Below are positions 12,254 to 28,542 of a DNA stretch of 64,000 bases, in pieces. The notes beneath the pieces are model-generated. The model did no database searches, had not been told where the DNA came from, and was given only the letters and a program-made list of their open reading frames with translations. The position numbers and the translations under genes were made by a program. Position 1 is the stretch's first letter, and the number at the start of each line of letters is the position of its first letter. Origin of the DNA: a virus; IMG/VR virus record IMGVR_UViG_3300024983_000137; one strand, 5' to 3'.

Positions 12254-13510
12254 ATGATTACAAAACAAAAAGTAAGAGTTGTGTATCGTCTGAACACACA
12301 GAAAGAAAAAGACGGAAAACATCCCATTTTCATGCGGATATTCGTCGACCACAAAAAATCCGAAGTCTTTACAGACCAGTATGTTTCAGAAGCACATTGG
12401 GACAATAACGCCAAGAAAGTTCGTTCAGCCTGTAAAGAAGCCGATTACATAAACAGCTATTTAGACAACCTGAAAGCCAAAGTTCAGAACCAGTTTTACG
12501 AACTGAGAAGCCAGGGAAAAGAAATTACTTCAGAACAGCTAAAGAATCAACTCTTAGGCATCGAAGAAAAGCTTAAACACAAAACCATCCTCGAAGCCTT
12601 CGACTACCACAATTTAAAACTATCCGAACAGGTCAAAATCGGAAAAGTAGTTGCTAAGACATACACCCGTTACAAAATCACAAAAAACAAAGTAGAAGCA
12701 TTCATACAGTACCAGTACAAAAAAGACAACATACCCCTGCCCGAAATGCGGTTGCGGTTTGTAACAGAATTTGAACATTATCTGCTGACCATTGACAAAC
12801 TCCAATCCAACACCGCACACAAATACATCAAGAACCTCAAAAAGATCATGAACATGGCAGTAGGTTTGGACTGGATTCCCTCAAACCCTTTCAACCTATT
12901 CAAGTGTTCTTATGTCAGCACCGAGCGCGATATTTTGAACCAGGAAGAACTGGATGTAATCCGTCACAAGAAAATCAGCATAGAACGCCTGGCAGAAGTC
13001 CGCGATGTATTCATATTCTGCTGTTACACCGGGTTCGCCTACAGTGATGTTTACCAGTTCGAACGCAACGCGGTTATCATTGGTTTGGATGGCGAATACT
13101 GGCTTTCAACCAACCGCCAGAAAACAGGCACAAAAGAAAGTGTGCCATTGTTACCCATTCCTTTGGAAATTATTGAGAAATACAAAGACAATGAATATTG
13201 CATCAAGCACAACAAGTTGTTGCCCATCAACAGCAACCAGCGTTACAATGCCTACCTGAAAGAAATGGCAGACATCTGCGGGATCAAAAAACACCTCACA
13301 ACCCACATTGCACGGCACACATTCGCCACAACCGTCACCCTGGCAAATGGCGTTCCGATAGAAACAGTCAGTGCCATGCTCGGACACAACAACATCCGCA
13401 CCACACAGATTTATGCAAAAGTCGTAGAACAGAAAGTAAGCGATGATATGCAGCAACTAAGAGAAAAACTATTCGCACAATCCGGCCAACTGAAAACCAA
13501 AATAGGGTAA
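12254..13510 (+). CDS. Tyrosine recombinase/integrase (Bacteroidota arm-binding type)
   Basis: Catalytic region HLTTHIARHTFAT, LGHNNIRTTQIYAK; N-terminal arm-binding domain. Confidence 0.93.
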   Translation: MITKQKVRVVYRLNTQKEKDGKHPIFMRIFVDHKKSEVFTDQYVSEAHWDNNAKKVRSACKEADYINSYLDNLKAKVQNQFYELRSQGKEITSEQLKNQLLGIEEKLKHKTILEAFDYHNLKLSEQVKIGKVVAKTYTRYKITKNKVEAFIQYQYKKDNIPLPEMRLRFVTEFEHYLLTIDKLQSNTAHKYIKNLKKIMNMAVGLDWIPSNPFNLFKCSYVSTERDILNQEELDVIRHKKISIERLAEVRDVFIFCCYTGFAYSDVYQFERNAVIIGLDGEYWLSTNRQKTGTKESVPLLPIPLEIIEKYKDNEYCIKHNKLLPINSNQRYNAYLKEMADICGIKKHLTTHIARHTFATTVTLANGVPIETVSAMLGHNNIRTTQIYAKVVEQKVSDDMQQLREKLFAQSGQLKTKIG

Positions 13511-15489: not shown

Positions 15490-16611
15490 TTATATCGTAA
15501 GTTTCTTTTCAAGTTTGTTCAATGTGTCTATAAGTTTCGTGAGTGGATTAATCTGATTTTTTCCAACAAAGCAAAAGAAAATTTCAATGTTCAGTTCCTT
15601 ACATTTTTCAATAATTGTCGTTGAAGGCATAAACCTTGAAACTAAAAGAGATTTAGAAATAACACCACCATAAGTGTCTTTTACTACTCGCATTTTATTT
15701 ATGTCCTCTTGTTTTACAATTCCAGATTTACATTCAACAAAAATTAGTTTACCTCCAATGTTTACAAGAATATCTATTTCATTTTTTGTCGTGTTTGTAT
15801 CTGTTTTAAAAGGAAGTTCGCATTGAATTAGTAGTTCTTTTGCTTTTGTCCATTTTGAAATTGCTTTAGCAACGGTCAACTCCCACCAACCCGCATTAAA
15901 AAATAGAGTTCTCGCATTGGGAGAATCAATTTTCAATACATCACGGCCTTGAAGCGTTATAGTAATTTTGTTAGCAGTCCAGTTCAATTTGCAGGTTTTA
16001 TTTATTTCAAGCAGTCCTGATGTTGGAACCTTAATTTTATTGTATTTATCCTTGTAGGCATTTCTGATTTTAGAATTGATTTGCAAAAGCAATTTGTCGT
16101 AGGACAATGAAAAACTTTCTATGGCTGAAACACATTTAAAATCATCGTTAGAAAAATTAGAAAGAACATTTGAATGACTTATTTTATGTCCCGTCATTTC
16201 CAAAAATTCTTTTATCGTAATTTCTGATATGATTTTTTTGATTTCGTATGAAGGTAATTGTAGGAATGTATTGTCTAAGTTTATGTAAAATCCTTTTATA
16301 TTTTTTTCTTGCATTATGGCTTGGGCAGCCAATACCATTACTTTAGTTCCTCCTGTCAAATTAAATTGAACTTCGTCAGAAGATTCAATCTTCTCAAGTA
16401 TGTCAGTAAGTTTTTTTTTGATAGAAGTAAAATCAAACGGATTGCATTGTTTTTCAGAAAATATTTTGTCTGAAAAAAATGGTTTGAGTAAGCTAATTTT
16501 GTTTTTGGATTCTTCTGAAACAATAAAATGAATTTTATCGGGAGAAAATTCTTTTATCCCAACAAATACTGGCAAAAGTTGCCCGCCAATGAAAGTGATT
16601 TGGTGCTTCAT
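15490..16611 (-). CDS. CARF plus PD-(D/E)XK nuclease (Card1/Can2/DUF1887-like)
   Basis: N-terminal CARF (IGGQLLPV...FNLTGGTKVM); C-terminal GWWEL...NEIDIL...FVECKSG. Confidence 0.82.
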   Translation of the reverse strand: MKHQITFIGGQLLPVFVGIKEFSPDKIHFIVSEESKNKISLLKPFFSDKIFSEKQCNPFDFTSIKKKLTDILEKIESSDEVQFNLTGGTKVMVLAAQAIMQEKNIKGFYINLDNTFLQLPSYEIKKIISEITIKEFLEMTGHKISHSNVLSNFSNDDFKCVSAIESFSLSYDKLLLQINSKIRNAYKDKYNKIKVPTSGLLEINKTCKLNWTANKITITLQGRDVLKIDSPNARTLFFNAGWWELTVAKAISKWTKAKELLIQCELPFKTDTNTTKNEIDILVNIGGKLIFVECKSGIVKQEDINKMRVVKDTYGGVISKSLLVSRFMPSTTIIEKCKELNIEIFFCFVGKNQINPLTKLIDTLNKLEKKLTI

Positions 16612-17186
16612 TTTAAGAATATTTCAGGTTGATTTTTAAACGGATTGTACACAACATTAAGTATTTCAGAGCCTGGCATTGGCTTTCTTAAATCTTTGAT
16701 ATATTCAGAAAAATCAACGTAAACGATTCTACAACCGTAATCTTTTCCAAAAATGGAAGCTGATGCCACCATTGATTTTTTACCGCCTGTAATGTCAACC
16801 GTAATTTGTGAGTTTGGATTCAAAACAAGTTGTTCTTTCATTGCGTTATACATTGATTCAAAACTTTCATCATCTAGGTAGATGAGTTCGTAATTAGATT
16901 CAAGGAATTTTTCAAGATAACTATTATCAACTTTTTGGTTGTTTGTAGTGAAAATGATATGTGTTTCAGGCTGTACTGCTTTTGCAGTAAGAATTATTGG
17001 TTCAGGTGAAAAACCAAGCACCGAAAACAATGTGCCACCTCGAGGCAATGTATTACTATACTTTTCGCAGAAATTGTTTATCACTGCTTCAAAAAGTTTT
17101 TCAAAGTATAATTCTTGTGCTTTTTCAAATTTGCCATTTTGGGCAAGGTCAAGCCATTCTTGTAAATATGGAATTTGTTTACTCAT
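16608..17186 (-). CDS. Stand-alone CARF-domain protein
   Basis: VLGFSPEPIILT and VDITGGKKSM CARF motifs, VYVDF; no effector domain in 192 aa. Confidence 0.78.
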   Translation of the reverse strand: MSKQIPYLQEWLDLAQNGKFEKAQELYFEKLFEAVINNFCEKYSNTLPRGGTLFSVLGFSPEPIILTAKAVQPETHIIFTTNNQKVDNSYLEKFLESNYELIYLDDESFESMYNAMKEQLVLNPNSQITVDITGGKKSMVASASIFGKDYGCRIVYVDFSEYIKDLRKPMPGSEILNVVYNPFKNQPEIFLK

Positions 17187-18631
17187 TAGCTTTTACTGAT
17201 TTTAAGTTCAAAAAATTTAAAGATGTATTTTTCTATATCAAACCTTGGTGCGGTTTTTTCTAAAAGAAAAATGTTACTCCCTTTTAAATTGCATTTATAG
17301 AAATAGTTTCCTATAATTAAGTATTCAGAATCTTTAGATTTCCCATAAAATATAATGGATGATTTAAACTCCTCTAAGTTCACATTCAAGGTGGATTTGT
17401 ATGAAACAACTGGGTTTTGCGGCAATAAAGGAGCGCTTAAACCCTTTTGCTGTTCATAAGCGATATACGTTACAAATAAGTCGTTTCGTGTTGGATTAAT
17501 TTTAAATTCATAAAACGATGTTTCTATTAGTTTTTTGTGAAAATCAAGAAACTCTTTTCGTTGTGTTTCATTTAAAACACTACCAACTTCAAAGCCATTA
17601 ATTAAACCGTGATTTCCGTCAATATTTGCTGTAAATATCATTCCTGTTTTTTCATTAATAACACCTTTTGAATGATTAAATACATCTGCATAAACTTTAC
17701 AACCAATTTCACTTAATTTTGATACGCCTTCCAAATGGTCATTTCTGTAATTCATTCCTCTGCAAAAAATAGAAACAGAAACGCTTCTTTCTATTGCTCT
17801 CTTAATTGATTGAAATAATTCTTCTATTGAATTTAATCCAACAATACTGTAAGTTGATAAATACAAATATTCATTTGCTTGGTTGATGATTGAAACAATT
17901 TCATCAAGCAAATTATTAGATAGATTTTCGCAAGTATATCTGAGGGCTGAAAGTTCTGATTTTGGCAATAAATTGCTATCAATGTCTGCTTCTGATTGAA
18001 CAACTAACATTTTACCTTTTTTCTTAGTGCCTAAAAATTGCTTGTAAGTTGTGCCTTGTAGAAAAATTACATCAAATAATTTGTCAAGTTCTTCACTGCT
18101 TTTTTCATCTAAATAAGCACCCGATTCCGTATTAAAGGTTAGTGATGGTGTAGTGAAATTTGCACTTGTAATAAAGCCAATGGTTCTGTCTGCAACTATA
18201 AATTTAGAATGGGCAGTAAGCGAAGCTCTAACGTGTATGCCATTATCATAAAGTTGCTTTATGTATTTCAAATGTGTTCGTGCTGGGTTTTCCTTTATTT
18301 CTTCTTCGGTAATAAAATCAACCAAAGACAAGGAGTTTTCCAATTTGGTTGGATCTAATTGAGTAAGTATAAAAAGAGCAACTTGGGTTTCTTTAGCTTT
18401 ATTCAGTATTGCACTAAATATCTCTTGGTCGGTAATAATGAAACTACAAACTTTTAAAACAGAGGTCGCTTCGCCAATTATTTTAAGTATTTCATTTTTT
18501 AAAGTAACATTACCTTCTTGAGTTAAGAAAATGGTTTCATAATCAAGAAATGGAGTAAACTCTGCTTTACTTTCGTTTAAAACGAAAACGCCTGAATTTA
18601 GTGTGTCTGTATTTTTTAAAACTAATTCCAT
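17186..18631 (-). CDS. Phospholipase D-family protein with two HKD motifs (putative nuclease)
   Basis: HSKFIVAD...TSANFT and HSKGVINE...FTANID. Confidence 0.82.
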   Translation of the reverse strand: MELVLKNTDTLNSGVFVLNESKAEFTPFLDYETIFLTQEGNVTLKNEILKIIGEATSVLKVCSFIITDQEIFSAILNKAKETQVALFILTQLDPTKLENSLSLVDFITEEEIKENPARTHLKYIKQLYDNGIHVRASLTAHSKFIVADRTIGFITSANFTTPSLTFNTESGAYLDEKSSEELDKLFDVIFLQGTTYKQFLGTKKKGKMLVVQSEADIDSNLLPKSELSALRYTCENLSNNLLDEIVSIINQANEYLYLSTYSIVGLNSIEELFQSIKRAIERSVSVSIFCRGMNYRNDHLEGVSKLSEIGCKVYADVFNHSKGVINEKTGMIFTANIDGNHGLINGFEVGSVLNETQRKEFLDFHKKLIETSFYEFKINPTRNDLFVTYIAYEQQKGLSAPLLPQNPVVSYKSTLNVNLEEFKSSIIFYGKSKDSEYLIIGNYFYKCNLKGSNIFLLEKTAPRFDIEKYIFKFFELKISKS

Positions 18632-19995
18632 TAAATCACTTTTAGCATATGCTTTTCTATATCGTATTTTTCTAACAGATCATATTCTCCTGCTAATATC
18701 AAATACGATCTTATTTTTTCCTTGTATTCTGAATGGCTTTTCAAAAAATCAGAAAATGAAGATTTTCTGTGCTGCTTTATCAATTCAATAAATTCTATCA
18801 ATTCTTTAATACTCGAATCATCGGTAGAATAGTATAAATAAAACAAGAACACATTTCGTTCTAAACTGTTATTAAAAATCCGATAATCACGTTTTCTAAT
18901 TAAGTCGCTAACCAGCTTTTGTCTATTGGGACTTTCTTCCAATGTTTTTTTGCGAATGTTTATTTCTACAGCATCGTCTTCATAAATGAGGCTATCTGAG
19001 TCTATATATTTCAAACCATACATACTCTCTAAAAACTTCAATAAATCTTCACTACTAAAATTGAAACATTTGTTGTTTGATTCCTTATATCTGTCAATCT
19101 CGGGTAAGTTTGTTGTTAAGATAAGCATAGGCTTTTCAGAACTTTCTCTTTTCTGAAACGGAATAGTTATTTTAAATTCTAAATTTTGAATACGTTCTTT
19201 TAATGTAGAATCAAAAATCTTTACATTCTTTCTTAATGTTTCGTAGTAAGTTAGTTCTTCTCCTATGGAATAAATAGCGTATCCATCTATTAGTTCTTTG
19301 ATTAAGCCATTTTTTGATTTACTAACAGAAACAAGAATTTGAAAACTCATTTTGGTAAATGATATTTCATCTATGCTTTGTAGTCCATTGGGTATTCCAA
19401 AATCTTCTCTTTGCTCTATAGCAACAGCAAAAACCAATTCGGAGATTTGATTTTTTTCAGGTGGCGTATGCACCAAATCAGGGGCAAATGGTCTTATTAC
19501 ATAGCGTTCTCTTGTTTTCGGATTCGTTTTGTAAAAACTGTAATGTTCATTTATTAGCTTACTTTTATAGTAATTATAAAATACTTTAGGTAACGGTTTA
19601 AATGTAATTCCATCAATAAAAAAATCGTGAGATTGTTTATGACGTCTTAATTGGGTTTTGGTGTCAAAAACAGAAATCCCATCTTCGGTTAATAAATATT
19701 TTTTATCTTCTTTAGTCAATAAACCATCACTTACAAGTTTATCAAGACGTAGTTCTATCAATGCTTTTGACGTGCCGATAATGCTCCCAATTTGAAATGA
19801 GCTAAAATCAGGTTTGACTTTTATAAAATCAACAATTACTTTATCCAAATTGTCAAGCGGGTCAGGCGTGGAATCAGAAATTTCAGAGTGTATGCAATAA
19901 ATAGGATATTGGATACAAAAAATCCCTTTTAATTGCCTATCCATTGCAGACAATTCTTCATAATATCTTTCTATGTCAATACTAAAATTGCTCAT
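18631..19995 (-). CDS. Unknown protein with a probable N-terminal winged helix, 454 aa
   Basis: SSFQIGSIIGTSKALIELRLDKLVSDGLL...YLLTEDG is wHTH-like; 1-nt overlaps with both neighbours. Confidence 0.6.
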   Translation of the reverse strand: MSNFSIDIERYYEELSAMDRQLKGIFCIQYPIYCIHSEISDSTPDPLDNLDKVIVDFIKVKPDFSSFQIGSIIGTSKALIELRLDKLVSDGLLTKEDKKYLLTEDGISVFDTKTQLRRHKQSHDFFIDGITFKPLPKVFYNYYKSKLINEHYSFYKTNPKTRERYVIRPFAPDLVHTPPEKNQISELVFAVAIEQREDFGIPNGLQSIDEISFTKMSFQILVSVSKSKNGLIKELIDGYAIYSIGEELTYYETLRKNVKIFDSTLKERIQNLEFKITIPFQKRESSEKPMLILTTNLPEIDRYKESNNKCFNFSSEDLLKFLESMYGLKYIDSDSLIYEDDAVEINIRKKTLEESPNRQKLVSDLIRKRDYRIFNNSLERNVFLFYLYYSTDDSSIKELIEFIELIKQHRKSSFSDFLKSHSEYKEKIRSYLILAGEYDLLEKYDIEKHMLKVI

Positions 19996-22900
19996 TAATA
20001 GGAAAAGGCTATTTGTTTTTTAGTTCTATCAATCTTTATAATTTTAACTCGTATTGTTTCATTCAATAAAATATTGTTGGAGCTTTTAATCCAACTTTTA
20101 TGCAAAAGACCTTCAAGTCCAGTTTCCATTTTAATGAAATATCCGAATTCAACTTCTTTTTGAACTATGCCGTTTACCCAATCTCCTTTTTTATATTTCT
20201 TGATTGTTGTTTCCCAATTCAGATTTTTTTCTTGTTCAGTATTTTTTCTGTTATAATGTTGTGGATTACCATTTGGTGGATTTGTGGTCAGATAATTTAA
20301 AGAGTTATTTTTATTGATCAACATAACAGTAATTCTTTTAGAGTTATTATCTATTTCGGTAACTATTACATTTACCGGATCTCCCTCTACATAATTAGTA
20401 AAATTTTTATTTAAGATTTGACCCTTATGGAAATATGGAGCTAATACAGTTACCTCGTTAATATCAATAAATAAGCCGTACGGCTTATCGCTGTCTTTTG
20501 ATACTCCAAGTTTTTTTGATACTCCTGTAGTAGTATCACCGACTTTGTACTTTTCTAAGAAAGATTCGAATGGAGATTTAAAATCATACAAATCGGCAAC
20601 ATTTATAAAGTTTCCGATTGCATCTTTTTTGCTAAGTCGCACTAAATTTTTAAATAGTTCAGTATAATCAAAAATACGGTCATAATGCGACCTTTTATCA
20701 GTAAGTGTTTTTGAATTTCCAATAAAAATTAATTTCTTTTTTGCTCGACTAAAAGCAACATTCAATCGTCTTGCATCGTCCAAAAATCCAACTTTTGAAA
20801 ACTTAGGTTTTCCATTTATAACAGGGGCTTTACTGTGGTCAGATGAACGGGTAAAACTAAAAATGATTATATCATATTCCTTTCCTTGAAATGAATCAAG
20901 TGTTGAAACATCAATGTTTTTAAATTTACAAGACGACCTGTTTATATGGTTTTTGATATTTGCAACTTGTGATTTGTATGGTGCTATAATAGCAATGTTT
21001 GAAGGGTTTACTTCGTTGTCAAATAGTTTTGGCAGTATGATTTCTGAAATTGTTTCTGCTTCCGTATTATTCATCGCAGAAAAACCGTCATTTTGCTCAA
21101 ATGGATTTTTTGAATTTGATGTATCAAAGAAAACCACTTCTTTATCAAAAGGCGAAGGAAAATCAAGTCTGTTCAAATGGGTTTTACTTCCCATTTTTAC
21201 CTTGCCATCATAAAAAGAACTTGATACAAATTCGCCAATGTTAGGGTGCATTCTGTGCTGATAATTCAGCATTTCTATATTTTCTTTTGGAAATTGGTCT
21301 GCGTTAATTCTATTTACAATAAATTCAAAGAATGAGGTTTTAAGAGCGTGAAGAATTTCTTCTTCCAGAAACTCTGAACCGTATACAGAATTTGGAAAAC
21401 TTGTTGGTTCTGATTTGTCAATAAGCGAACCGTCCATATACGGAGGTAATTGTTTTTGGTCGCCAACAAGAATTACTTTTTCCCCAAGTTCAATTGCAAC
21501 TAATGATTCCGCAATGTTTGCTTTCCCAGCTTCGTCAATAATTACGGTGTCGAATTTGAAATTTTTGTCTTTGAAAATTGGGTCGGATTTGATACCAATG
21601 CAAGTTGCAAAAACCACGTCAATAGAATTGTAGATTAAAGGTTTTAATAAAATCTCATATTCATTGTTTGATTCTTCAACCCATTTTTTTAGTATTTCTA
21701 TCGTTTCTTTTATTTCTGATAATGATAACTCTGACAGCCCTTTAAGTAAAATAAAGTGTCTTTGTTTATAGACTTCTTTTAAAACACCGTATTTTTCAAT
21801 TAATGAATTTATATACTGATTAAGCGATGTTTTAATTTCGCTTTTATCTGTTCCGTTAATTTTTTTCGTTAAATATTCATTGGCAACTAAAAGCTGATTT
21901 GCAATAAACTTTTTGAAGTCTATTTTATATTCATCAACAAGATTGTCAATGCTATATCTTACTAATTGCTTATCAATTCTGTCAGGATTTCCAACTCTTA
22001 AAAGGTTTAATTTTGGAAATTGAGAAATTTTCTCCAATACATTATCTACCGCAACATGATTTTGTCCTGAAACCAGTATTTTTTCACCTTTTTCAACTAA
22101 TTGCTGTATAATTTCTGCAATTACAGTCGTTTTTCCAGTACCAGGAGGTCCTTGAATTAAAAAGATATTTTGATTACCTACGGCTTTTTTTACAGCAGTT
22201 ATTTGGTTATTACTTGAATCTTCATTTTCGGTTATTGCTAAATTTTCATTTTTGAATTGTACTGATTTTAGAATAGGTGTCTTTACCTTATCGGGCTTAA
22301 CCAATAATGATTCTATGTGGTCAATCTTTATTTTTTTATCTAAAAAATCTTGAATAATTTCCCGTTGTATTTGAAATTGTTTTTTAGAAATACGTTTGTC
22401 CAAATAAAATCCATCTTTCAATAAAGAAAGTTTTATTTGCTTGTTGAATGTTATGACATAGTCATCATTGGAGTATGAAAGAATTCCGTCAGATAATTTT
22501 ATGAGTTTGTCCTCATCTTTATCTTTCAATCTAACATTTACAACAGTATCTTCATTGACTTCAAGACTATCTCCAACTGTTCTCGGTAATTTTATTGCTA
22601 CACCTTGATTAGCCGCAGGAATACGTTCACATTTATCGACAAATACATTATTCTCCTTTTGTTGTTCGATTAAGCTAATTTGATATTCAAGAAATTTATC
22701 AATAATAGCAAGGGTTCTTCCTTCTTGTCTTAAAATTTCACCTGCTTCGTTTTTTAACTGATTTATAGTTTCAAAACATTTTGTTTTTAGAACTGCGTAA
22801 TCAAGAAATTCATTTTGCGAATTGTCAAATGGGGTTGTTCCATAAGGTGAAATAATTTTCAACTTGTTGCTAAATAGGAAAGAACCATACTTTGTATTTC

Positions 22901-23921
22901 TTTTCTTGGCTTCACTCGATTTAACCTGGCTATGTCCAAATGAAAAGTCCTTGATAATGAATTTTATTTCCTTTTTATCTTTACTTATTGCAACATCTCC
23001 AAAGATGTTTACATCTTCATTATAAAGTGAAAAATCAGTTTTTTGATTTCCTTCCCGAATATTTATTTTAAACCAATAGTGTTGATTAGATAATAGCTCT
23101 AAGAGTTTGTTTTCACTTTCGTTTGAAACATTGGTTTCATTTAAAAAATAAGGAATTGCATTTTGCTTAAATGTTGTCTCGTAGCTTGCGTTTCCTAATT
23201 CAAACTGTATGTATAACGTTTTGTCTGTTTTAAATTCCTTTGAAAATATTTTATCATCAAATTCAAAACCGGCTTTAATTACAATTAGTTGCTCGTCTGT
23301 TGCGTAAACACCAAGAATTGAGTTCTTGAAAAAATAGAATGATTGTAAATCATCTTCAATAAAGTTGATTTCAGGGATTGAAAATTCTTCGTCTGCTTCG
23401 TCTTGTGCAATATCTAAAGATGCAGGAACAAAGGAAAGCAATTCACTATAATCAAGTTTAGAATTAACTTTGACCCTAATCTTTTTCTCTGGATTTTGAA
23501 GATAGTTATTATTTATTATGCCATAAAGACTATCATTTGTCTTTACGATTGTAGTATTGTTGTATCTTTCAACAATATCAGCATAAAATTCATCACCACG
23601 TTCTATTCTTTCCCAAGCTACGGTGCTGCTTATAGGTTCTGAAAGATGTTTTTTGCTTAAAATAACTTGTTTATTGGGGAAGTCTATATTCAGAACAACA
23701 CAATTAATTTTATCGCCAACTTTGAATTTTTTAAATTCTGCTTCACCTTCTGGAAAACACCAAGAGAGATCCATTATAGATAAACGACCAATAAAATCGT
23801 TTTCAATTTCTAATATTATCTGAGAAGGATTTATGATTGAAGTAATGTAGGTTTCAATAACAGTTCCTCTGTCATATTTTTGTAAAAACTCAGTTCTTAA
23901 TTTTTCCTTACCAATCTCCAT
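19995..23921 (-). CDS. SF1 (Upf1/DNA2-like) helicase with N- and C-terminal S1 RNA-binding domains, 1308 aa
   Basis: QGPPGTGKTT, IIDEAGK, VGDQKQLPP, YQHRMHP, IIAPYKSQV, TLDSFQGKE, RRLNVAFSRAK; S1-like segments (GRLSIMDLSW...VGDKINCVVL; YGYFIK-type EFGYFIKMETGLEGLLHKS). Confidence 0.88.
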   Translation of the reverse strand: MEIGKEKLRTEFLQKYDRGTVIETYITSIINPSQIILEIENDFIGRLSIMDLSWCFPEGEAEFKKFKVGDKINCVVLNIDFPNKQVILSKKHLSEPISSTVAWERIERGDEFYADIVERYNNTTIVKTNDSLYGIINNNYLQNPEKKIRVKVNSKLDYSELLSFVPASLDIAQDEADEEFSIPEINFIEDDLQSFYFFKNSILGVYATDEQLIVIKAGFEFDDKIFSKEFKTDKTLYIQFELGNASYETTFKQNAIPYFLNETNVSNESENKLLELLSNQHYWFKINIREGNQKTDFSLYNEDVNIFGDVAISKDKKEIKFIIKDFSFGHSQVKSSEAKKRNTKYGSFLFSNKLKIISPYGTTPFDNSQNEFLDYAVLKTKCFETINQLKNEAGEILRQEGRTLAIIDKFLEYQISLIEQQKENNVFVDKCERIPAANQGVAIKLPRTVGDSLEVNEDTVVNVRLKDKDEDKLIKLSDGILSYSNDDYVITFNKQIKLSLLKDGFYLDKRISKKQFQIQREIIQDFLDKKIKIDHIESLLVKPDKVKTPILKSVQFKNENLAITENEDSSNNQITAVKKAVGNQNIFLIQGPPGTGKTTVIAEIIQQLVEKGEKILVSGQNHVAVDNVLEKISQFPKLNLLRVGNPDRIDKQLVRYSIDNLVDEYKIDFKKFIANQLLVANEYLTKKINGTDKSEIKTSLNQYINSLIEKYGVLKEVYKQRHFILLKGLSELSLSEIKETIEILKKWVEESNNEYEILLKPLIYNSIDVVFATCIGIKSDPIFKDKNFKFDTVIIDEAGKANIAESLVAIELGEKVILVGDQKQLPPYMDGSLIDKSEPTSFPNSVYGSEFLEEEILHALKTSFFEFIVNRINADQFPKENIEMLNYQHRMHPNIGEFVSSSFYDGKVKMGSKTHLNRLDFPSPFDKEVVFFDTSNSKNPFEQNDGFSAMNNTEAETISEIILPKLFDNEVNPSNIAIIAPYKSQVANIKNHINRSSCKFKNIDVSTLDSFQGKEYDIIIFSFTRSSDHSKAPVINGKPKFSKVGFLDDARRLNVAFSRAKKKLIFIGNSKTLTDKRSHYDRIFDYTELFKNLVRLSKKDAIGNFINVADLYDFKSPFESFLEKYKVGDTTTGVSKKLGVSKDSDKPYGLFIDINEVTVLAPYFHKGQILNKNFTNYVEGDPVNVIVTEIDNNSKRITVMLINKNNSLNYLTTNPPNGNPQHYNRKNTEQEKNLNWETTIKKYKKGDWVNGIVQKEVEFGYFIKMETGLEGLLHKSWIKSSNNILLNETIRVKIIKIDRTKKQIAFSY

Positions 23922-24603
23922 TTTATTTTCATTTTAGGCTGAGTATTCATTTTACAGATGGCAAATAGATTAAAAAAATGCATAGAAACATCTATTCACA
24001 TGAATTTGTCCATTTGTGATATATATAATCTACATATAAATTCATACTAAATAATTTTTGATATTACTTGTTTATCGTTAGGCGTAATAGTGAATATGTA
24101 TGGAAATAACTTCTAATTTATTAAAAATGAATCTTCTTACGAAGAACCAATATTACAAAATATATGATAAAAATCTACATAAAACAAAACATTTTAGCGT
24201 TTATTACCTCCTTAATGTAAATCTCTTGATTAAATTTTATGTCCCAATTTTGGTAAATATTTGATACAAAATCCAGTCATAAATCAGCGACAAATTTTAA
24301 ATCTGTTTTTTGAAAAATGCTATATTTATTAGGTGTTTTAGCTTGTTTTTTGTCACAAATAATGACAAAATTTGTTACAAAATAAGAGGAATTACAGATG
24401 GTATAATCAAATTCAATTGAGGGTGGTCAGGAAGGTAGTCAAGTGGTGGTCAAGTTGAAAATAAATAGTAATTCTCAATTGAAAATTGATATTGAGTATT
24501 TATACCTAATCAACTAGGTATAAATACCCGATTTTCATCCATCATACACATCATATTTCAAAATTTAGTAGCATTGTATACTCATACCTGAATAACGAAT
24601 CTT

Positions 24604-24636
24604 TTTGTCACAAATTTTTACTAAATTTGTGACAAA
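24604..24636. promoter_or_regulatory. Perfect 14-bp inverted repeat upstream of the AbiE-type operon
   Basis: TTTGTCACAAATTT-ttact-AAATTTGTGACAAA, 17 bp before the GTG start. Confidence 0.65.
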
Positions 24637-24653
24637 TTATTATTTTAAACAAC

Positions 24654-25268
24654 GTGCAAACATCTAAAAATAAGATAGAAAATAAAATTTTAAAATCTCC
24701 GAGAGGAATACTGTTCTTCGCTGAGGATTTTACAAATTATGGAACACCTGAAAATATCCGTCAGGTACTGTCTCGTTTAGAAAAAGAGAGTGTATTAGTA
24801 CGTTTGGCACATGGAATTTATGTTAAGCCCAAAATAGATCCGTTATTAGGGACTATTTTACCTACTGCAGAACATGTAGCTGTCGAAATTTCAAAACGTG
24901 ATAAGTCGCGAATAGCTCCAACAGGAGTTCTGGCATTAAATCTATTAGGACTATCTACCCAAGTCCCGATGAATGCCGTATATCTTACTGATGGTTCACA
25001 AAGAATCGTAAAAATCGGAAAGCGGACAATCAGATTTAAGAAAGCCGCACCAAGAAATTTTGCGATAAAAGATGAACTCCTGCATTTGATTGTCCAGGCA
25101 ATGAAAGTAACAGGGCAAAAAGAAACAACAGATGATTTTCTGGATCGGATAAAACCATTCGTGCAAAAGTTAAATCCGGCTGTAATCAAAACACAATTGA
25201 AATATGGCCCTGTATGGATACAGAAAGAGATTATGAAACTATACAAAAATCAGACGGATGTGGATTAA
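24654..25268 (+). CDS. abiEi: AbiEi-like antitoxin / transcriptional regulator (DUF6088-like)
   Basis: N-terminal wHTH (IRQVLSRLEKESVLVRLAHGIY), ALNLLGLSTQVP...YLTDG; overlaps the downstream NTase. Confidence 0.78.
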   Translation: MQTSKNKIENKILKSPRGILFFAEDFTNYGTPENIRQVLSRLEKESVLVRLAHGIYVKPKIDPLLGTILPTAEHVAVEISKRDKSRIAPTGVLALNLLGLSTQVPMNAVYLTDGSQRIVKIGKRTIRFKKAAPRNFAIKDELLHLIVQAMKVTGQKETTDDFLDRIKPFVQKLNPAVIKTQLKYGPVWIQKEIMKLYKNQTDVD

Positions 25269-26262
25269 TTTAGAAAGAAATCAAAAAATACAGCTATTAG
25301 AGCAAATGAGTACCTTGACAGGATACCCTGCTTTAGTCATTGAAAAAGACTGGTGGGTATGTCTTGTTTTAAAAGCTGTATTCCAATCAGAATATGCAGA
25401 CTCTATTATATTCAAAGGAGGAACTTCATTAAGTAAAGCATATCAATTGGTAGAACGCTTTTCGGAAGATATCGACTTGATTATCGACAGACATCTGTTA
25501 GGATTTGACGAACTAAATTCAAAATCTCAGATCAAAAAACTTCGCAAAGCATCAGGAGGATTTATCATCAATGAATTCAGAGAAGAATTAATACAGCAGC
25601 TCTCCAACTTGGGAATAGATTCTTCCTTATACGAAATCAAATACAATGACGAAGTAGATGATACCAGCGACCCAAATACACTGGAATTACACTATCAGTC
25701 CGCTATAGATACAGACAATGACTACATACAAAAACGGGTACTTTTAGAAGTCGGTGCACGATCACTAACCGAACCATCCGAAAAGAAAGCCGTTATTTCA
25801 TTCATTGATAAAGAATTTAGTCATTTACCATTCGCATTGCCTGAGTTTAATGTACAAGTGGTAAAACCAATCAGAACGTTTATCGAAAAGACCTTACTGT
25901 TACACGAAGAATTTTCGAAACCAACAGACAAAATAAGAACAGACCGCTTAACAAGACATCTGTACGATCTGGAAAAAATGATGGATACAGAACATGGTAT
26001 TACAGCAATAACCGATGATGAATTATTCAATACAATTGTAGAACACCGCAAAAGTGTTACTCCTATACGTGGGATTGATTATTCCAATCATAAAAAAGGA
26101 AAACTCAAAATCGTACCTCCTCAAGAAGTCATTCAAGATTGGGAAAACGATTACAAAGAAATGCAGCAAAACATGATGGCAGGCGAAAGCTTGCCGTGGA
26201 ACGCTCTCATAGAGCGAATAAAAGAAATTGAAATAAGATTTAATGAAATTGAAAAAGAATAA
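25258..26262 (+). CDS. abiEii: AbiEii nucleotidyltransferase toxin (type IV TA)
   Basis: IEKDWWV, FKGGTSLSK, RFSEDIDL, EKTLLLHE, RHLYD. Confidence 0.88.
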   Translation: MWINLERNQKIQLLEQMSTLTGYPALVIEKDWWVCLVLKAVFQSEYADSIIFKGGTSLSKAYQLVERFSEDIDLIIDRHLLGFDELNSKSQIKKLRKASGGFIINEFREELIQQLSNLGIDSSLYEIKYNDEVDDTSDPNTLELHYQSAIDTDNDYIQKRVLLEVGARSLTEPSEKKAVISFIDKEFSHLPFALPEFNVQVVKPIRTFIEKTLLLHEEFSKPTDKIRTDRLTRHLYDLEKMMDTEHGITAITDDELFNTIVEHRKSVTPIRGIDYSNHKKGKLKIVPPQEVIQDWENDYKEMQQNMMAGESLPWNALIERIKEIEIRFNEIEKE

Positions 26263-26265
26263 GAA

Positions 26266-28542
26266 ATGAGTGGATTTAAATTGTTGGCAATAAGACCATT
26301 GGAGGGATGTGATGAAAAGTATAGGAAAAATTTGATTCCGGGACAGATTTATCAATTTTATCAGGATTATCAATTTGAAATTTCCAAGGATGAAGAAGGC
26401 AAAGAAGTTGTTTCTGCAAAACCTTTAGAAACTAACGTTCCAATGGATTTGTACAATATTAGACGAAAAGATAAGCCAGATTTGAAGATTAATATTTCTG
26501 CAATTGTAGGTAAGAACGGTAGTGGGAAAAGTTCATTGCTTGAAATTATTTATGGTACAATCTATTTGCTAGGTGAACAGGAAGAACTTTTTGATGATGA
26601 AAGTAGCTTTGATGAGGCAAATAGACTCCTTTTAGATGCAAAAGATTTGTTCAATAAACATAAGAAATTTAAAGAAGAAACAGAATTAGAATGGTACAAG
26701 AATTTTTTTGAAGATATTACGATAAATCTAGAAGGTAATTCGGAATACCTAAAACTGAATGAAGACAAGTATAAACGAATCAGAAAATTATTTGAACGAA
26801 CAAAACCAGATAATTACGAAGAATTAATAAATATTCGACAACGAACTGTTGACTCGTTTAATCACATTCATACTGGACTGAAAACAGAAATTTATTTTGA
26901 AATAGATAGTGTTATCTATGTTATTCGCGTGAATAATGATGAAAAACAAGTTTCAATTACTCCTATCCACGGATTATCCATTGAAGATTATAAAAAGAAA
27001 GAACTTTCTATTCTTCAAACATTCTTTTATTCTATAGCTGTCAATTATTCAATTCATGGATTAAACGATCGTACAATTGGTAGTTGGATAAATCCGCTAT
27101 TTCATAAGAATGATGGTTATCAAACTCCTTTAGTTATCAATCCAATGAGAACACATGGGGATTTTAAAATTGAAAGAGAAGAATATCTAGCAAAATCAAG
27201 GTTGTTATCTAACCTATTATTGAATGATGAAAAAAATGAACACCGGAAATTAACTGATAAACAGATAGCAACCCACCTAATATTTACTCTTAACAAAGAG
27301 AAAATTGGTCCAGATAGACTTAAAACAATTAATGAAGACACACTTAAGGATAGAATTACTAAACAAATCCAGAGTGAATTGTATGGAACATTCAATATCA
27401 ATATTGATTTAATTAATATTCCATTTAAGCAAGAAATTGAAAATTACATACTCAACAAAATTGAAAAAATATTGTATGTGTATAAACCCTATGAAAAAAC
27501 ATACACGAATAACTTAGCAAGATTTAGAGATGTTGTATTTGATACTGTAATAGAAGAAAAAATTCCTCAACTCATAAATGCGCTTTATACAGATGATTCT
27601 CACATTACGTTTAAATTGCGTCAGGCGATCAATTATTTAAAAAATGGCTTATTAGAAAATGTTGCTGATAAAATAGAGTGGGAATTTGGTAACCATAAAT
27701 ATCTTTTGGAAAGTTGGAATGATAAAGATCAATATGTCATTTCCATTGAAAGTTTATCAGATAAGCTGGCTAAAAAAACAAATGATCGACTAATTAATTT
27801 AATCCCTCCGTCGCTTTTTGATATTGAGATTATATTAACTGATGATAAATCTCTGTCGTCTTTTAAGCTATTAAGTTCAGGTGAACAGCAACATATTCAC
27901 TCTATACAATCCATTCTTTATCATCTTTATAACATTGATTCTGTTTTCAATCAACCAGATCATAGTGAGATTGTTGGTACACGCTTTACATACCCAAATA
28001 TTAATATAGTCTTGGATGAAATTGAGTTATATTTCCATCCAGAGTTTCAAAGAAGATTTGTTTCTGATTTACTTAAATCGATAGGACGTTTGAATTTAGG
28101 TAAAAATGATGCTAAAGATAATTTTTTGGGTATCAATTCAATCAATATTTTGTTTGCTACTCATTCGCCCTTTATTCTTTCAGACATTCCATCACAAAAT
28201 GTTCTCCGTTTGGAAAATGGCATTCCATCTAATAATGAGCAAAAAGGAACTTTTGGAGCAAATATTCATGAGATGCTCAATGACAATTTTTTCTTAGATA
28301 AAGGTGCAATGGGAGAGTTTGCTAAGACGCATATTGAGGATATAGCCAAAGAAATAATAGATTCAAATTTCATTGAACTCAAAAAAGTATACGAATTATC
28401 AAAAAAGATTGAAATAATTGAAGAACCGCTTATAAAAGAAAGACTTGAGTTTTTACTTGCACAAAAGAGTTCTTTGAAAAGTAAAGATGAAATCATTGCC
28501 GAGTTGAAACAAGAAATTCAGGGTTTGAAAAATAAAAGTTAA
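26266..28542 (+). CDS. ptuA: ABC/AAA_21 ATPase, Septu PtuA-like
   Basis: GKNGSGKSS Walker A, LSSGEQQ signature, LDEIELYFHPEFQR Walker B/D-loop, ATHSPFILSD H-loop; followed after 4 nt by a partner gene. Confidence 0.72.
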   Translation: MSGFKLLAIRPLEGCDEKYRKNLIPGQIYQFYQDYQFEISKDEEGKEVVSAKPLETNVPMDLYNIRRKDKPDLKINISAIVGKNGSGKSSLLEIIYGTIYLLGEQEELFDDESSFDEANRLLLDAKDLFNKHKKFKEETELEWYKNFFEDITINLEGNSEYLKLNEDKYKRIRKLFERTKPDNYEELINIRQRTVDSFNHIHTGLKTEIYFEIDSVIYVIRVNNDEKQVSITPIHGLSIEDYKKKELSILQTFFYSIAVNYSIHGLNDRTIGSWINPLFHKNDGYQTPLVINPMRTHGDFKIEREEYLAKSRLLSNLLLNDEKNEHRKLTDKQIATHLIFTLNKEKIGPDRLKTINEDTLKDRITKQIQSELYGTFNINIDLINIPFKQEIENYILNKIEKILYVYKPYEKTYTNNLARFRDVVFDTVIEEKIPQLINALYTDDSHITFKLRQAINYLKNGLLENVADKIEWEFGNHKYLLESWNDKDQYVISIESLSDKLAKKTNDRLINLIPPSLFDIEIILTDDKSLSSFKLLSSGEQQHIHSIQSILYHLYNIDSVFNQPDHSEIVGTRFTYPNINIVLDEIELYFHPEFQRRFVSDLLKSIGRLNLGKNDAKDNFLGINSINILFATHSPFILSDIPSQNVLRLENGIPSNNEQKGTFGANIHEMLNDNFFLDKGAMGEFAKTHIEDIAKEIIDSNFIELKKVYELSKKIEIIEEPLIKERLEFLLAQKSSLKSKDEIIAELKQEIQGLKNKS

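Follow-up and report, generated by a model that had tools for sequence, protein, structure and literature searches.

A conserved five-gene cassette coupling a Mokosh-like helicase and PLD nuclease to two CARF proteins: a candidate defence system with a proposed Cas10-independent signal

Introduction

Which signal is read by two CARF proteins that are encoded in one operon with a helicase and a nuclease, and with no Cas10? In the current understanding, CARF sensors receive cyclic oligoadenylates (cOA) made by Cas10. Two CARFs hard-wired into a Mokosh-like operon without Cas10 would point either to a new route to an adenylate messenger or to CARFs of the Csm6 and Can2 kind that read a different infection signal. 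The literature searched contained no study devoted to the mechanism of Mokosh or CnuH-CnuE, and a conserved fourth subunit with predicted ligand binding would offer a direct experimental way into Mokosh-type systems. The operon lies in a stretch of 64,000 nucleotides of viral DNA (IMG/VR record IMGVR_UViG_3300024983_000137), here called the window.

Gene content and setting

The cassette (positions 15490-23921, 8.4 kb) consists of five minus-strand open reading frames, with successive overlaps of 1, 1, 1 and 4 nt according to the ORF list (Table 1). These are exactly the five overlapping genes described in the initial annotation of the window, and its domain calls for a helicase with S1 domains, a double-HKD PLD, a stand-alone CARF and a Card1/Can2-like nuclease hold in Pfam, PADLOC and structure comparison. 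It had also reported that a CRISPR array, Cas10 and a CD-NTase were missing from the window and a kinase domain from the helicase. Our search of the window for the first three found none, and no kinase domain was among the 24 Pfam matches of the helicase at E<=0.01. The cassette sits in a low-GC island together with an integrase, AbiE, a PDC-M62A-like ATPase and a Dam methylase.

Table 1. Predicted genes, domains and motifs of the cassette (window positions)
Feature	Position	Strand	Basis or remark
Gene 1, Upf1/MkoA-type SF1 RNA helicase, 1308 aa	19995..23921	-	Profile matches
Two tandem N-terminal S1 RNA-binding domains, aa 10-182	23376..23894	-	Ribosomal protein bS1 profile E=8.5e-19; VIA-align Z 10-11.6 vs S1 domains
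Upf1-like stalk helix and 1B beta-barrel, aa 394-531	22329..22742	-	AF2 model, VIA-align, Foldseek
RecA1/RecA2 core, aa 571-1071	20709..22211	-	Pfam AAA_11 571-828, AAA_12 861-1071
C-terminal S1 domain, aa 1242-1308	19998..20198	-	Pfam S1 E=2.7e-16
Gene 2, stand-alone 'elongated wHTH' adaptor, 454 aa, CnuE/MkoB N-terminal type	18631..19995	-	Predicted fold
Winged helix-turn-helix, aa 43-117	19645..19869	-	Lrp/AsnC/MarR HTH PDB profile matches E=2e-4; VIA-align Z 9-10, rmsd ~2 A
Gene 3, double-HKD PLD-family nuclease, 481 aa	17186..18631	-	Pfam, HKD motifs
HKD motif 1, H141-K143-D148	18188..18211	-	Invariant in 31 sequences
HKD motif 2, H320-K322 ... N336-D338	17618..17674	-	Invariant in 31 sequences
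Gene 4, CARF-only protein, 192 aa, Csm6/Crn1-type	16608..17186	-	PADLOC, TtCsm6 profile match
Motif I, L57-G-F-S-P-E-P63	16998..17018	-	Invariant; aligns to TtCsm6 G58-T59-S60
Motif II, D131-I-T-G-G-K-K-S-M139	16770..16796	-	Invariant; aligns to TtCsm6 T133/G135/K137
Gene 5, Can2/Card1-type CARF-PD-(D/E)xK nuclease, 373 aa	15490..16611	-	PADLOC, Pfam, PDB
CARF domain, aa 1-140, with G9, S/T32, K90, Y109	16192..16611	-	Aligned to SthCan2 cA4 contacts S19, T42, K99, Y118
Nuclease domain, aa 234-344, with E278, D280, E293, K295	15580..15912	-	Invariant in 32 sequences

Helicase, adaptor and PLD nuclease

The helicase matched the PADLOC model MkoA (PDLC03920) over residues 267-1089 (E=3.7e-122) and the NCBIfam model for the IGHMBP2-family helicase (E=4.7e-84), with the SF1 core recognized by Pfam AAA_11 (E=1.9e-46) and AAA_12 (E=1.1e-50). 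Both the Walker A motif (G591-T598) and D796-E797 were invariant in the 34 sequences compared. Towards the N terminus the two S1 domains are followed by a stretch without fold match (residues 190-360) and then by the stalk. An AF2 model of the stalk and 1B region (pLDDT 79) aligned to Upf1 (2XZL) and Sen1 (8RAM) at Z 7.6, and Foldseek matched it to Upf1 (2XZP) with E=7e-4.

For the product of gene 2 neither Pfam nor NCBIfam gave a match. Its AF2 model (pLDDT 90.5) was similar in fold to the N-terminal regions of proteins with fused PLD, HEPN or PIN domains in AFDB and Atlas (e.g. E1WR07, E=1.2e-9), and PADLOC returned a weak match to MkoB (PDLC03923, E=9.5e-4). No catalytic-looking motif was conserved over the wider adaptor family. 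CnuE likewise has a wHTH N terminus joined to varying nuclease domains (Bell et al. 2024, eLife, PMC11090510). As judged from the model, this protein is not a cyclase and is predicted to be a stand-alone counterpart of the CnuE/MkoB N-terminal adaptor. It had previously been listed as an unknown wHTH protein; the winged helix is there, but "unknown" no longer applies to a fold of this type.

The third protein matched Pfam PLDc_2 in two stretches (E=4e-22), many DrmC models and, weakly, MkoB (PDLC03922, E=1.3e-4, PADLOC). Among solved structures its best relative was a poxvirus 'virion nicking-joining enzyme' (E=1e-7), followed by the PLD3/PLD4 exonucleases. The usual products of HKD nucleases carry 5'-phosphate and 3'-OH ends and are not cyclic, which counts against the signal production proposed below. 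Transesterification is known for HKD enzymes such as BfiI.

CARF proteins and their pockets

The small CARF protein encoded by gene 4 was assigned by PADLOC to CARF1--CARF (E=1.5e-28), and its profile matched the CARF domain of TtCsm6 (5FSH/8JBB; E=5e-13, residues 25-188). A HMMER alignment showed that the TtCsm6 residues G58, S60, T81, T133, G135, K137, Y161 (here Y156), R172 (R167) and E179 (E174) are kept and that R173 is conservatively replaced by K168, whereas aromatic residues (F/Y) stand at two positions of catalytic type, T59 and N164. The functions of these residues in TtCsm6 are those given by Du et al. 2023, where K137A abolishes cA4 binding. NCBIfam Crn1 matched with E=3e-4, which is below the cut-off of that model. 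By sequence, binding of a ligand of the cA4 type by the small CARF is likely, and cleavage of it as a ring nuclease is uncertain.

Gene 5 encodes a predicted Can2-type protein (PADLOC CARF4--CARF_PDDEXK, PDLC01890, E=1.1e-136; Pfam CARF_Card1 and Card1_endonuc), with PDB matches to the DUF1887 protein 8BAO (E=2.7e-36) and to Can2 7BDV (E=4.6e-12). Three of the four key cA4 contacts of SthCan2 are kept, with S19 changed to G9. The pocket residues of both CARF proteins are invariant across 30-50% identity, and both pockets look competent for cA4. Nevertheless the ligand could differ from cA4, because of the two aromatic replacements in the small CARF and the glycine in place of S19 in Can2.

Conservation of the cassette

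In total 35 related loci were fetched, 31 of which had enough flank for comparison of gene order. In all of these (31/31) the five genes were present and their order was unchanged, down to 30-40% identity, with intergenic gaps of -19 to +10 nt. The flanks differed in every lineage, and there was no recurrent sixth gene, as no flanking ORF family occurred in more than 4 of 32 loci. Pairwise identities were found to co-vary between the genes, with values of 0.93 for the helicase against the adaptor, 0.91 against PLD, 0.87 against CARF and 0.75 against Can2. Mean pairwise identity was 66% for the small CARF as compared to 44-52% for the other four genes. This gene arrangement is far beyond chance.

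A more distant member (L038) has all five genes. Among four informative distant loci, two (L039 and L041) have helicase-adaptor-PLD-CARF without Can2, and one (L043) has adaptor-PLD-CARF without Can2, its contig ending within the upstream gene. In the fourth (L040) a contig end truncates the CARF1-type gene, of which at least 310 aa are present. A CARF1-type gene directly follows the PLD gene in all four of these loci, each of which keeps helicase-adaptor-PLD-CARF or whatever part of it the contig holds. The CARFs of the distant relatives are 47-50% identical to the small CARF of the window, with identical motifs also where Can2 is missing, and WYL ligand-sensor genes accompany two of these relatives.

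The view of the five genes as one conserved unit is thus borne out by the 31 loci and the distant relatives. Neighbourhood recurrence had been set beforehand as a refuting test, and the CARF genes do stay with the helicase-PLD homologues. The domain call for the stand-alone CARF was also right, but the protein is not a mere partner of Can2, since it is the best-conserved of the genes and is kept in relatives without Can2. Because three of the four informative distant relatives lack Can2 yet keep the CARF, we consider the small CARF to belong to the core and Can2 to be an addition specific to this clade. At least 32 species-level genomes carry the cassette. Because cultured strains have it, among them Parapedobacter indicus, Cecembia rubra, Taibaiella chishuiensis, Pedobacter frigiditerrae and Flavobacterium chilense, material for testing exists.

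Search for a signal-making enzyme

The host genome (99.7% complete) gave no match to the Cas10 models PF22335, TIGR02578 and TIGR02577. The Cas10 palm (PF22335) was found in none of the 26 other carriers, with positive controls matched and with the limit that absence from MAGs is never absolute, so that Cas10 was seen in 0 of 27 genomes including the host. No SMODS-type CD-NTase was present in the host or in 19 of the 26 other carriers, and seven of the 26 had one. The sole CRISPR array of the host adjoins Cas9 and is of type II. These scans agree with the earlier proposal that no known cyclase stands behind the cassette.

Comparison with known systems

The cassette shares with Mokosh type I an Upf1-like COG1112 helicase (the MkoA match above), a PLD-family nuclease and the setting in a defence island. 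[quoted passage not shown] 2022, bioRxiv 10.1101/2022.05.11.491447). In contrast to Mokosh type I, the helicase has S1 domains instead of a Ser/Thr kinase domain, and the role of MkoB looks divided between an adaptor gene and a double-HKD PLD gene, which MkoB models match weakly (E ~1e-3 to 1e-4). Mokosh type I also has two genes, whereas here five are conserved (31/31 loci), two of them CARF genes.

With CnuH-CnuE of Type II/III CoCoNuT the cassette has in common an Upf1-like helicase with OB-fold RNA-binding domains and a stalk. The order of helicase, wHTH partner and effector with two PLD domains resembles Type III-C, where the wHTH is fused to two PLD domains, but here adaptor and PLD are on separate genes. 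An association of CnuH-CnuE with CARF proteins, including Can1/Can2-like ones, has been described, and for CARF-linked CoCoNuT a ligand not derived from Cas10 has been proposed (Bell et al. 2024, PMC11090510). Unlike in CoCoNuT, Pfam and PADLOC analysis of the neighbouring genes found no McrB/McrC (CnuB/CnuC), Hsp70-like CnuD or TerY-P in or near the cassette, flanking genes do not recur across 32 loci, and the CARF partner is a fixed CARF-only gene of the Csm6 type immediately after the PLD gene.

The two CARF families are those of cOA signalling in type III CRISPR (Can2/Card1 and a CARF of the Crn1/TtCsm6 type), with the cA4 contacts mostly kept and the Can2 nuclease motif intact, but no Cas10, type III genes or associated array are found with them. 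Proteins of the Can2 family usually serve as type III accessories. A Can2-fold protein outside a type III CRISPR locus is also known from Vibrio cholerae, namely the orphan DUF1887 protein VC1899 (PDB 1XMX), which is not regulated by cA4. The cassette Can2 matches 1XMX weakly in sequence (E=1.5e-3) and keeps three of four cA4 contacts, whereas in VC1899 the contacts are lost and the four positions read D, D, R and V. The best reading of these comparisons is that the cassette is a new CARF-wired variant of the Mokosh/CnuH-CnuE helicase-nuclease systems.

Discussion

Based on homology and the island context, we propose with a probability of roughly 55% that the cassette is a self-contained, horizontally mobile five-gene unit of anti-phage type that would use a Cas10-independent signal of the adenylate type. 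That the five genes form one integrated defence-type system is highly probable. The odds are about even for a ligand that is a cA4-type oligoadenylate. That the helicase-adaptor-PLD trio itself makes the ligand, much as the initial annotation had suggested for the helicase/PLD module, is somewhat less likely than not. In the proposed mechanism the adaptor would link the helicase to the PLD nuclease, and a cA4-like adenylate ligand would arise during the helicase-PLD reaction, without Cas10 or CD-NTase. Can2 would sense this ligand and respond by DNA nicking or RNA cutting as a second, abortive-infection layer, while the small CARF would sense it too and may either gate the trio or buffer or degrade the signal.

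The CARFs might instead be input sensors only, which we regard as rather unlikely. A CARF would then switch the trio on by protein contacts, Can2 would bind the same ligand in parallel, and the trio would make no messenger. Three of the four distant relatives have a CARF-only protein and no CARF effector, so that an off-switch would be senseless there and a regulatory subunit sensible, and the WYL ligand-sensor genes beside two of the relatives also speak for an input. The same logic has been proposed for CARF-linked CnuH/CnuE superoperons (Bell et al. 2024, PMC11090510), and the CARFs in the CoCoNuT paper are transcription regulators upstream of the module, which fits an input at least as well as a trio that is the source of the signal. 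However, the two pockets are more like those for cA4 than like RtcR, and no RNase leaving cyclic-phosphate ends is conserved with the cassette.

It is very improbable that the CARFs no longer bind a small molecule and act as structural or dimerisation modules, with Can2 activated by protein contacts or constitutive, as has been suggested for VC1899. That orphan is indeed not cA4-regulated, but it has lost the pocket residues that are invariant in both cassette proteins and that match the contacts of solved cA4 complexes. Hardly any weight is given to the idea that the cassette borrows cOA from type III CRISPR or CBASS elsewhere in the cell and that the CARF genes ride along with a Mokosh-like system; a borrowing of cOA had also been raised in the initial annotation and is now unlikely. 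The usual role of Can2 members as type III accessories and the SMODS-type CD-NTase in 7/26 carriers would fit such borrowing; the Cas10 palm is nevertheless absent from the host and all 26 other carriers, SMODS is missing in the host and 19/26, the host CRISPR is of type II, and the genes of the operon stay strictly together in 31/31 loci. That a Mokosh system came to lie beside two orphan CARF genes by chance has already been refuted by the comparative data. Defence genes do cluster, and AbiE and an ATPase system lie in the same island, but the order conserved in 31/31 loci, the overlapping reading frames, the flanks that differ in every lineage and a PLD-CARF link kept over deep divergence all argue against it.

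As to how the ligand would be made in the favoured model, an improbable version is that the PLD makes a cyclic or cA4-like oligoadenylate without a polymerase, or that the small CARF reverses the ring-nuclease transesterification. In its main form, the S1-helicase would supply A-rich phage RNA, and the PLD would excise and cyclise short oligoadenylates, its phospho-histidine intermediate being resolved by a ribose hydroxyl and not by water; both CARFs would then read the product. If true, CARF messengers would have a second source that does not depend on Cas10, and Mokosh-type systems would gain a mechanism. Three points lend it indirect support. Catalytic centres in the conserved quartet are limited to the ATPase of the helicase, the HKD site and the pocket of the CARF, HKD enzymes such as BfiI are known for transesterification, and the nearest solved sequence relative of the PLD is a poxvirus enzyme that nicks and joins.

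Conservation of the cassette

The cassette of five minus-strand genes is real and conserved. The ORF listing of the window returned the coordinates of the initial annotation, 15490-23921, with overlaps of 1, 1, 1 and 4 nt between successive ORFs. The operon spans 8.4 kb, and its carriers include cultured organisms such as Cecembia rubra and Taibaiella chishuiensis. With an adaptor profile 35 loci were retrieved from one-genome-per-species contigs, mostly labelled Bacteroidota. The expected recurrence of the whole set was borne out, as all five genes were found in the same order in 31 of the 31 loci with enough flank, with a spacing of -19 to +10 nt; the other four loci were cut by contig ends. 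Among these 31 loci identity went down to 30% (adaptor) and 39% (helicase), and the pairwise identities of the cassette genes co-varied. Each flanking ORF family occurred in at most 4 of 32 loci, and therefore the unit consists of the five genes and is mobile between different neighbourhoods. A profile search with the small CARF gave 778 clusters, and the 120 matches listed were all close cassette members. In a Chitinophagales MAG (L001:6128-12806) a cassette with 85-93% identity has frameshifts in its helicase gene and its PLD gene, owing either to decay of this copy or to faulty assembly.

Features of the window around and within the cassette
Feature	Window position	Strand	Length or remark
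Helicase ORF	19995-23921	minus	1308 aa
Adaptor ORF	18631-19995	minus	454 aa
PLD ORF	17186-18631	minus	481 aa
Small CARF ORF	16608-17186	minus	192 aa
Can2 ORF	15490-16611	minus	373 aa
Tyrosine integrase	12254-13510		in low-GC stretch of the cassette
RNA-library contigs	15491-17081, 18219-18435, 22800-23484		91-99% identity

The small CARF had the highest mean pairwise identity (66%), followed by the helicase (52%), PLD (50%), adaptor (46%) and Can2 (44%). Can2 was the least stable gene, and some otherwise close cassettes encode a very different Can2. Locus L007 compared to the window showed identities of 69% for the helicase, 84% for the CARF and 35% for Can2, and L028 compared to L029 showed 73%, 93% and 41%, respectively. 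The can2 genes of L007, L021, L025 and L028-L035 were either exchanged or are evolving much faster than the other cassette genes.

An exhaustive profile search also identified a distant branch of adaptors of 400-430 aa. In all four informative contexts of this branch a CARF1-type gene directly follows the PLD gene. In three of them (L039, L041 and L043) it encodes a CARF-only protein of 197-206 aa and Can2 is missing; the gene order is helicase-adaptor-PLD-CARF in L039 and L041, and in L043 the gene upstream of the adaptor is cut by the contig end. In the fourth context the CARF protein is longer (at least 310 aa) and is truncated by the contig end. The distant CARF proteins were 47-50% identical to the small CARF of the window, with identical pocket motifs. 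The conserved quartet is therefore helicase-adaptor-PLD-CARF, with Can2 as an addition specific to the clade of the window. The existence of quartets without Can2 speaks for a role of the small CARF beyond that of switching Can2 off. Genes for WYL-domain ligand sensors were located near two of these quartets (L039:664-1746 and L041:13821-14906).

Predicted functions of the proteins

The helicase matched the PADLOC model of MkoA (E=3.7e-122) and has an AAA_11/AAA_12 SF1 core with a C-terminal S1 domain. Residues 10-182 form two further S1 domains (family profile against bS1, E=8.5e-19; structure alignment, Z ~11), and residues 394-531 have the stalk and 1B barrel fold of Upf1/Sen1 (Z 7.6). As the initial annotation had stated, no kinase domain was visible, and none was detected in the helicase with Pfam. 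S1 domains dominated each of the fold searches covering residues 190-360, and an Atlas feature search for this region gave no match. A hidden nucleotidyltransferase is unlikely here, because the region has a single conserved acidic residue, E270. The region may form a third OB-like barrel or, as in CnuH, a RelE-like domain.

The adaptor had no match in Pfam or NCBIfam. Its AlphaFold model was confident (pLDDT 90.5), and solved structures matched it only at a winged helix, residues 43-117. The first ~370 residues resemble the N-terminal parts of predicted structures that have C-terminal nucleases of the PLD, Swt1- or Apea-type HEPN, or PIN type. In CnuE, an elongated wHTH is joined to one of several kinds of nuclease, and its gene follows that of an Upf1-like helicase (Bell et al. 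2024, PMC11090510). From this architecture and the modelled N-terminal fold, gene 2 is predicted to be a stand-alone adaptor, with the nuclease now a gene of its own. This adaptor is the "unknown wHTH protein" of the initial annotation. Invariant residues in the wider adaptor family were scattered only. We also considered the adaptor as a hidden cyclase, and rejected this as the confident model consists of a wHTH and an adaptor fold common to nuclease fusions.

Both HKD motifs of the PLD-family protein encoded by gene 3 were invariant. Co-folding of PLD with the small CARF scored 0.01 with the tool verdict "no answer", which counts neither for nor against binding.

The small CARF is a CARF-only protein, and its family profile aligned over nearly the full length with the CARF domain of Csm6 from Thermus thermophilus (TtCsm6; E=5e-13). 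The cA4 pocket of TtCsm6 has been defined by Du et al. 2023, and its residues were mapped onto the small CARF via the HMMER profile alignment. The kept or conservatively changed positions were invariant, or nearly so, across the family. This makes it likely that the small CARF binds a cA4-like adenylate; as judged from the same alignment, ring cleavage is uncertain.

Pocket residues of TtCsm6, with roles from Du et al. 2023, and the corresponding positions of the small CARF
TtCsm6	Role	Small CARF	State
G58	motif I	G58	kept
T59	motif I, positions 2'-OH nucleophile	F59	changed
S60	motif I, positions scissile phosphate	S60	kept
T81	adenine contact	T81	kept
E83	adenine hydrogen bond; alanine mutant retained ring-nuclease activity	N83	changed
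T133/G135/K137	motif II; K137A abolishes binding	identical numbering	kept
Y161	cleavage	Y156	kept
N164	cleavage	F159	changed
R172	stabilises cyclic phosphate	R167	kept
R173	adenine recognition	K168	conservative change
E179	adenine recognition	E174	kept

Can2 has the full length of a Can2/Card1-type protein, its nuclease residues were invariant, and PDB 8BAO was its best match. The contacts common to Can1 and Can2 (Zhu et al. 2021), which are S19, T42, K99 and Y118 in SthCan2, correspond to G9, S/T32, K90 and Y109 here. VC1899, an orphan not regulated by cA4, has D, D, R and V there.

Comparison with known systems

The closest named system is Mokosh type I, which has the strong MkoA match in common with the cassette. 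However, the cassette was not filed as Mokosh type I: its helicase lacks the kinase domain, the weakly matching counterpart of MkoB is divided over two genes, and the cassette has five genes in all. The cassette would work like the CnuH-CnuE module of CoCoNuT Type III-C, but McrBC and the other CoCoNuT genes are missing. The CARF pair comes from families of type III CRISPR systems, but no Cas10 accompanies it. A literature search gave no paper describing the cassette, and the CoCoNuT paper was the only related find on stand-alone CARF proteins or on CARF with Mokosh-like modules. No system of this kind appears in the 2025 CRISPR classification.

Source of the CARF ligand

In the proposed mechanism, phage RNA would be loaded by the S1-helicase, and the helicase would be coupled to the PLD nuclease through the adaptor. 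An adenylate-type ligand would arise and activate Can2 as a second layer, and the small CARF would gate the helicase-adaptor-PLD trio or tune the signal. The signalling question raised by the cassette is testable. The initial annotation had offered cOA borrowed from elsewhere as one possible source. Scanning the host genome (99.7% complete) with three Cas10 models and for SMODS-type CD-NTases identified neither. The Cas10 palm model found none in 26 other carrier genomes, with positive controls detected, and SMODS was absent from 19 of these 26. On host contig C6:428812-439298, outside the window, the sole CRISPR array of the host, with at least 49 copies of a 47-nt repeat and ~30-nt spacers, adjoins a gene for a 1445-aa Cas9 (TIGR01865, E=8e-100); it is of type II. 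Taken together, these results make borrowing of cOA unlikely. In one carrier genome, G018, a weak SMODS-like match (E=5e-6; contig C6:184038-184409) was located ~5 kb from the cassette of L035; it is probably a mere defence-island neighbour, since no other locus had one.

Two models of the ligand source were considered. The trio itself may make the CARF ligand (internal source); within the quartet, catalytic centres are limited to the ATPase, the HKD site and the CARF pocket. HKD enzymes are capable of joining besides cutting, and a speculative chemistry for this model would be transesterification by the PLD, whose nearest solved sequence relative is a poxvirus nicking-joining enzyme. Alternatively, the ligand may be an external RNA-damage product with the CARF as input switch, an RtcR-like logic proposed for related CARF-linked superoperons (Bell et al. 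2024, PMC11090510).

Genomic surroundings and hints of transcription

The GC content of the cassette stretch was ~30% in comparison to ~40% in its surroundings. This low-GC stretch also contains an AbiEi/AbiEii pair, a PDC-M62A-like ATPase and, next to a prophage, a Dam-type methylase. No tRNA and no CRISPR-like array was detected in the window. At window 24654-28542 the AbiEi/AbiEii pair is directly followed by the 758-aa ABC/AAA_21 ATPase, which matched the PADLOC candidate PDC-M62A (E=2.5e-47), and the three may form one unit. A palindromic TTTGTCACAAAT...ATTTGTGACAAA motif occurs twice (window 24345-24385 and 24604-24636) in the 730 bp that separate the divergent helicase and AbiEi genes, and is probably the AbiEi operator. 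The host is likely a member of Bacteroidota, and a sigma-70 promoter scan, which does not cover the promoters of this group, gave fewer sites than shuffled sequence did.

Short contigs from RNA-type libraries of wastewater and sludge aligned to can2, carf, pld and hel, and within one metatranscriptome all four genes had such matches. As DNA carry-over is possible, they give a weak hint that relatives of the cassette are transcribed. The DNA of the window itself was found in bioreactor and wastewater metagenomes.
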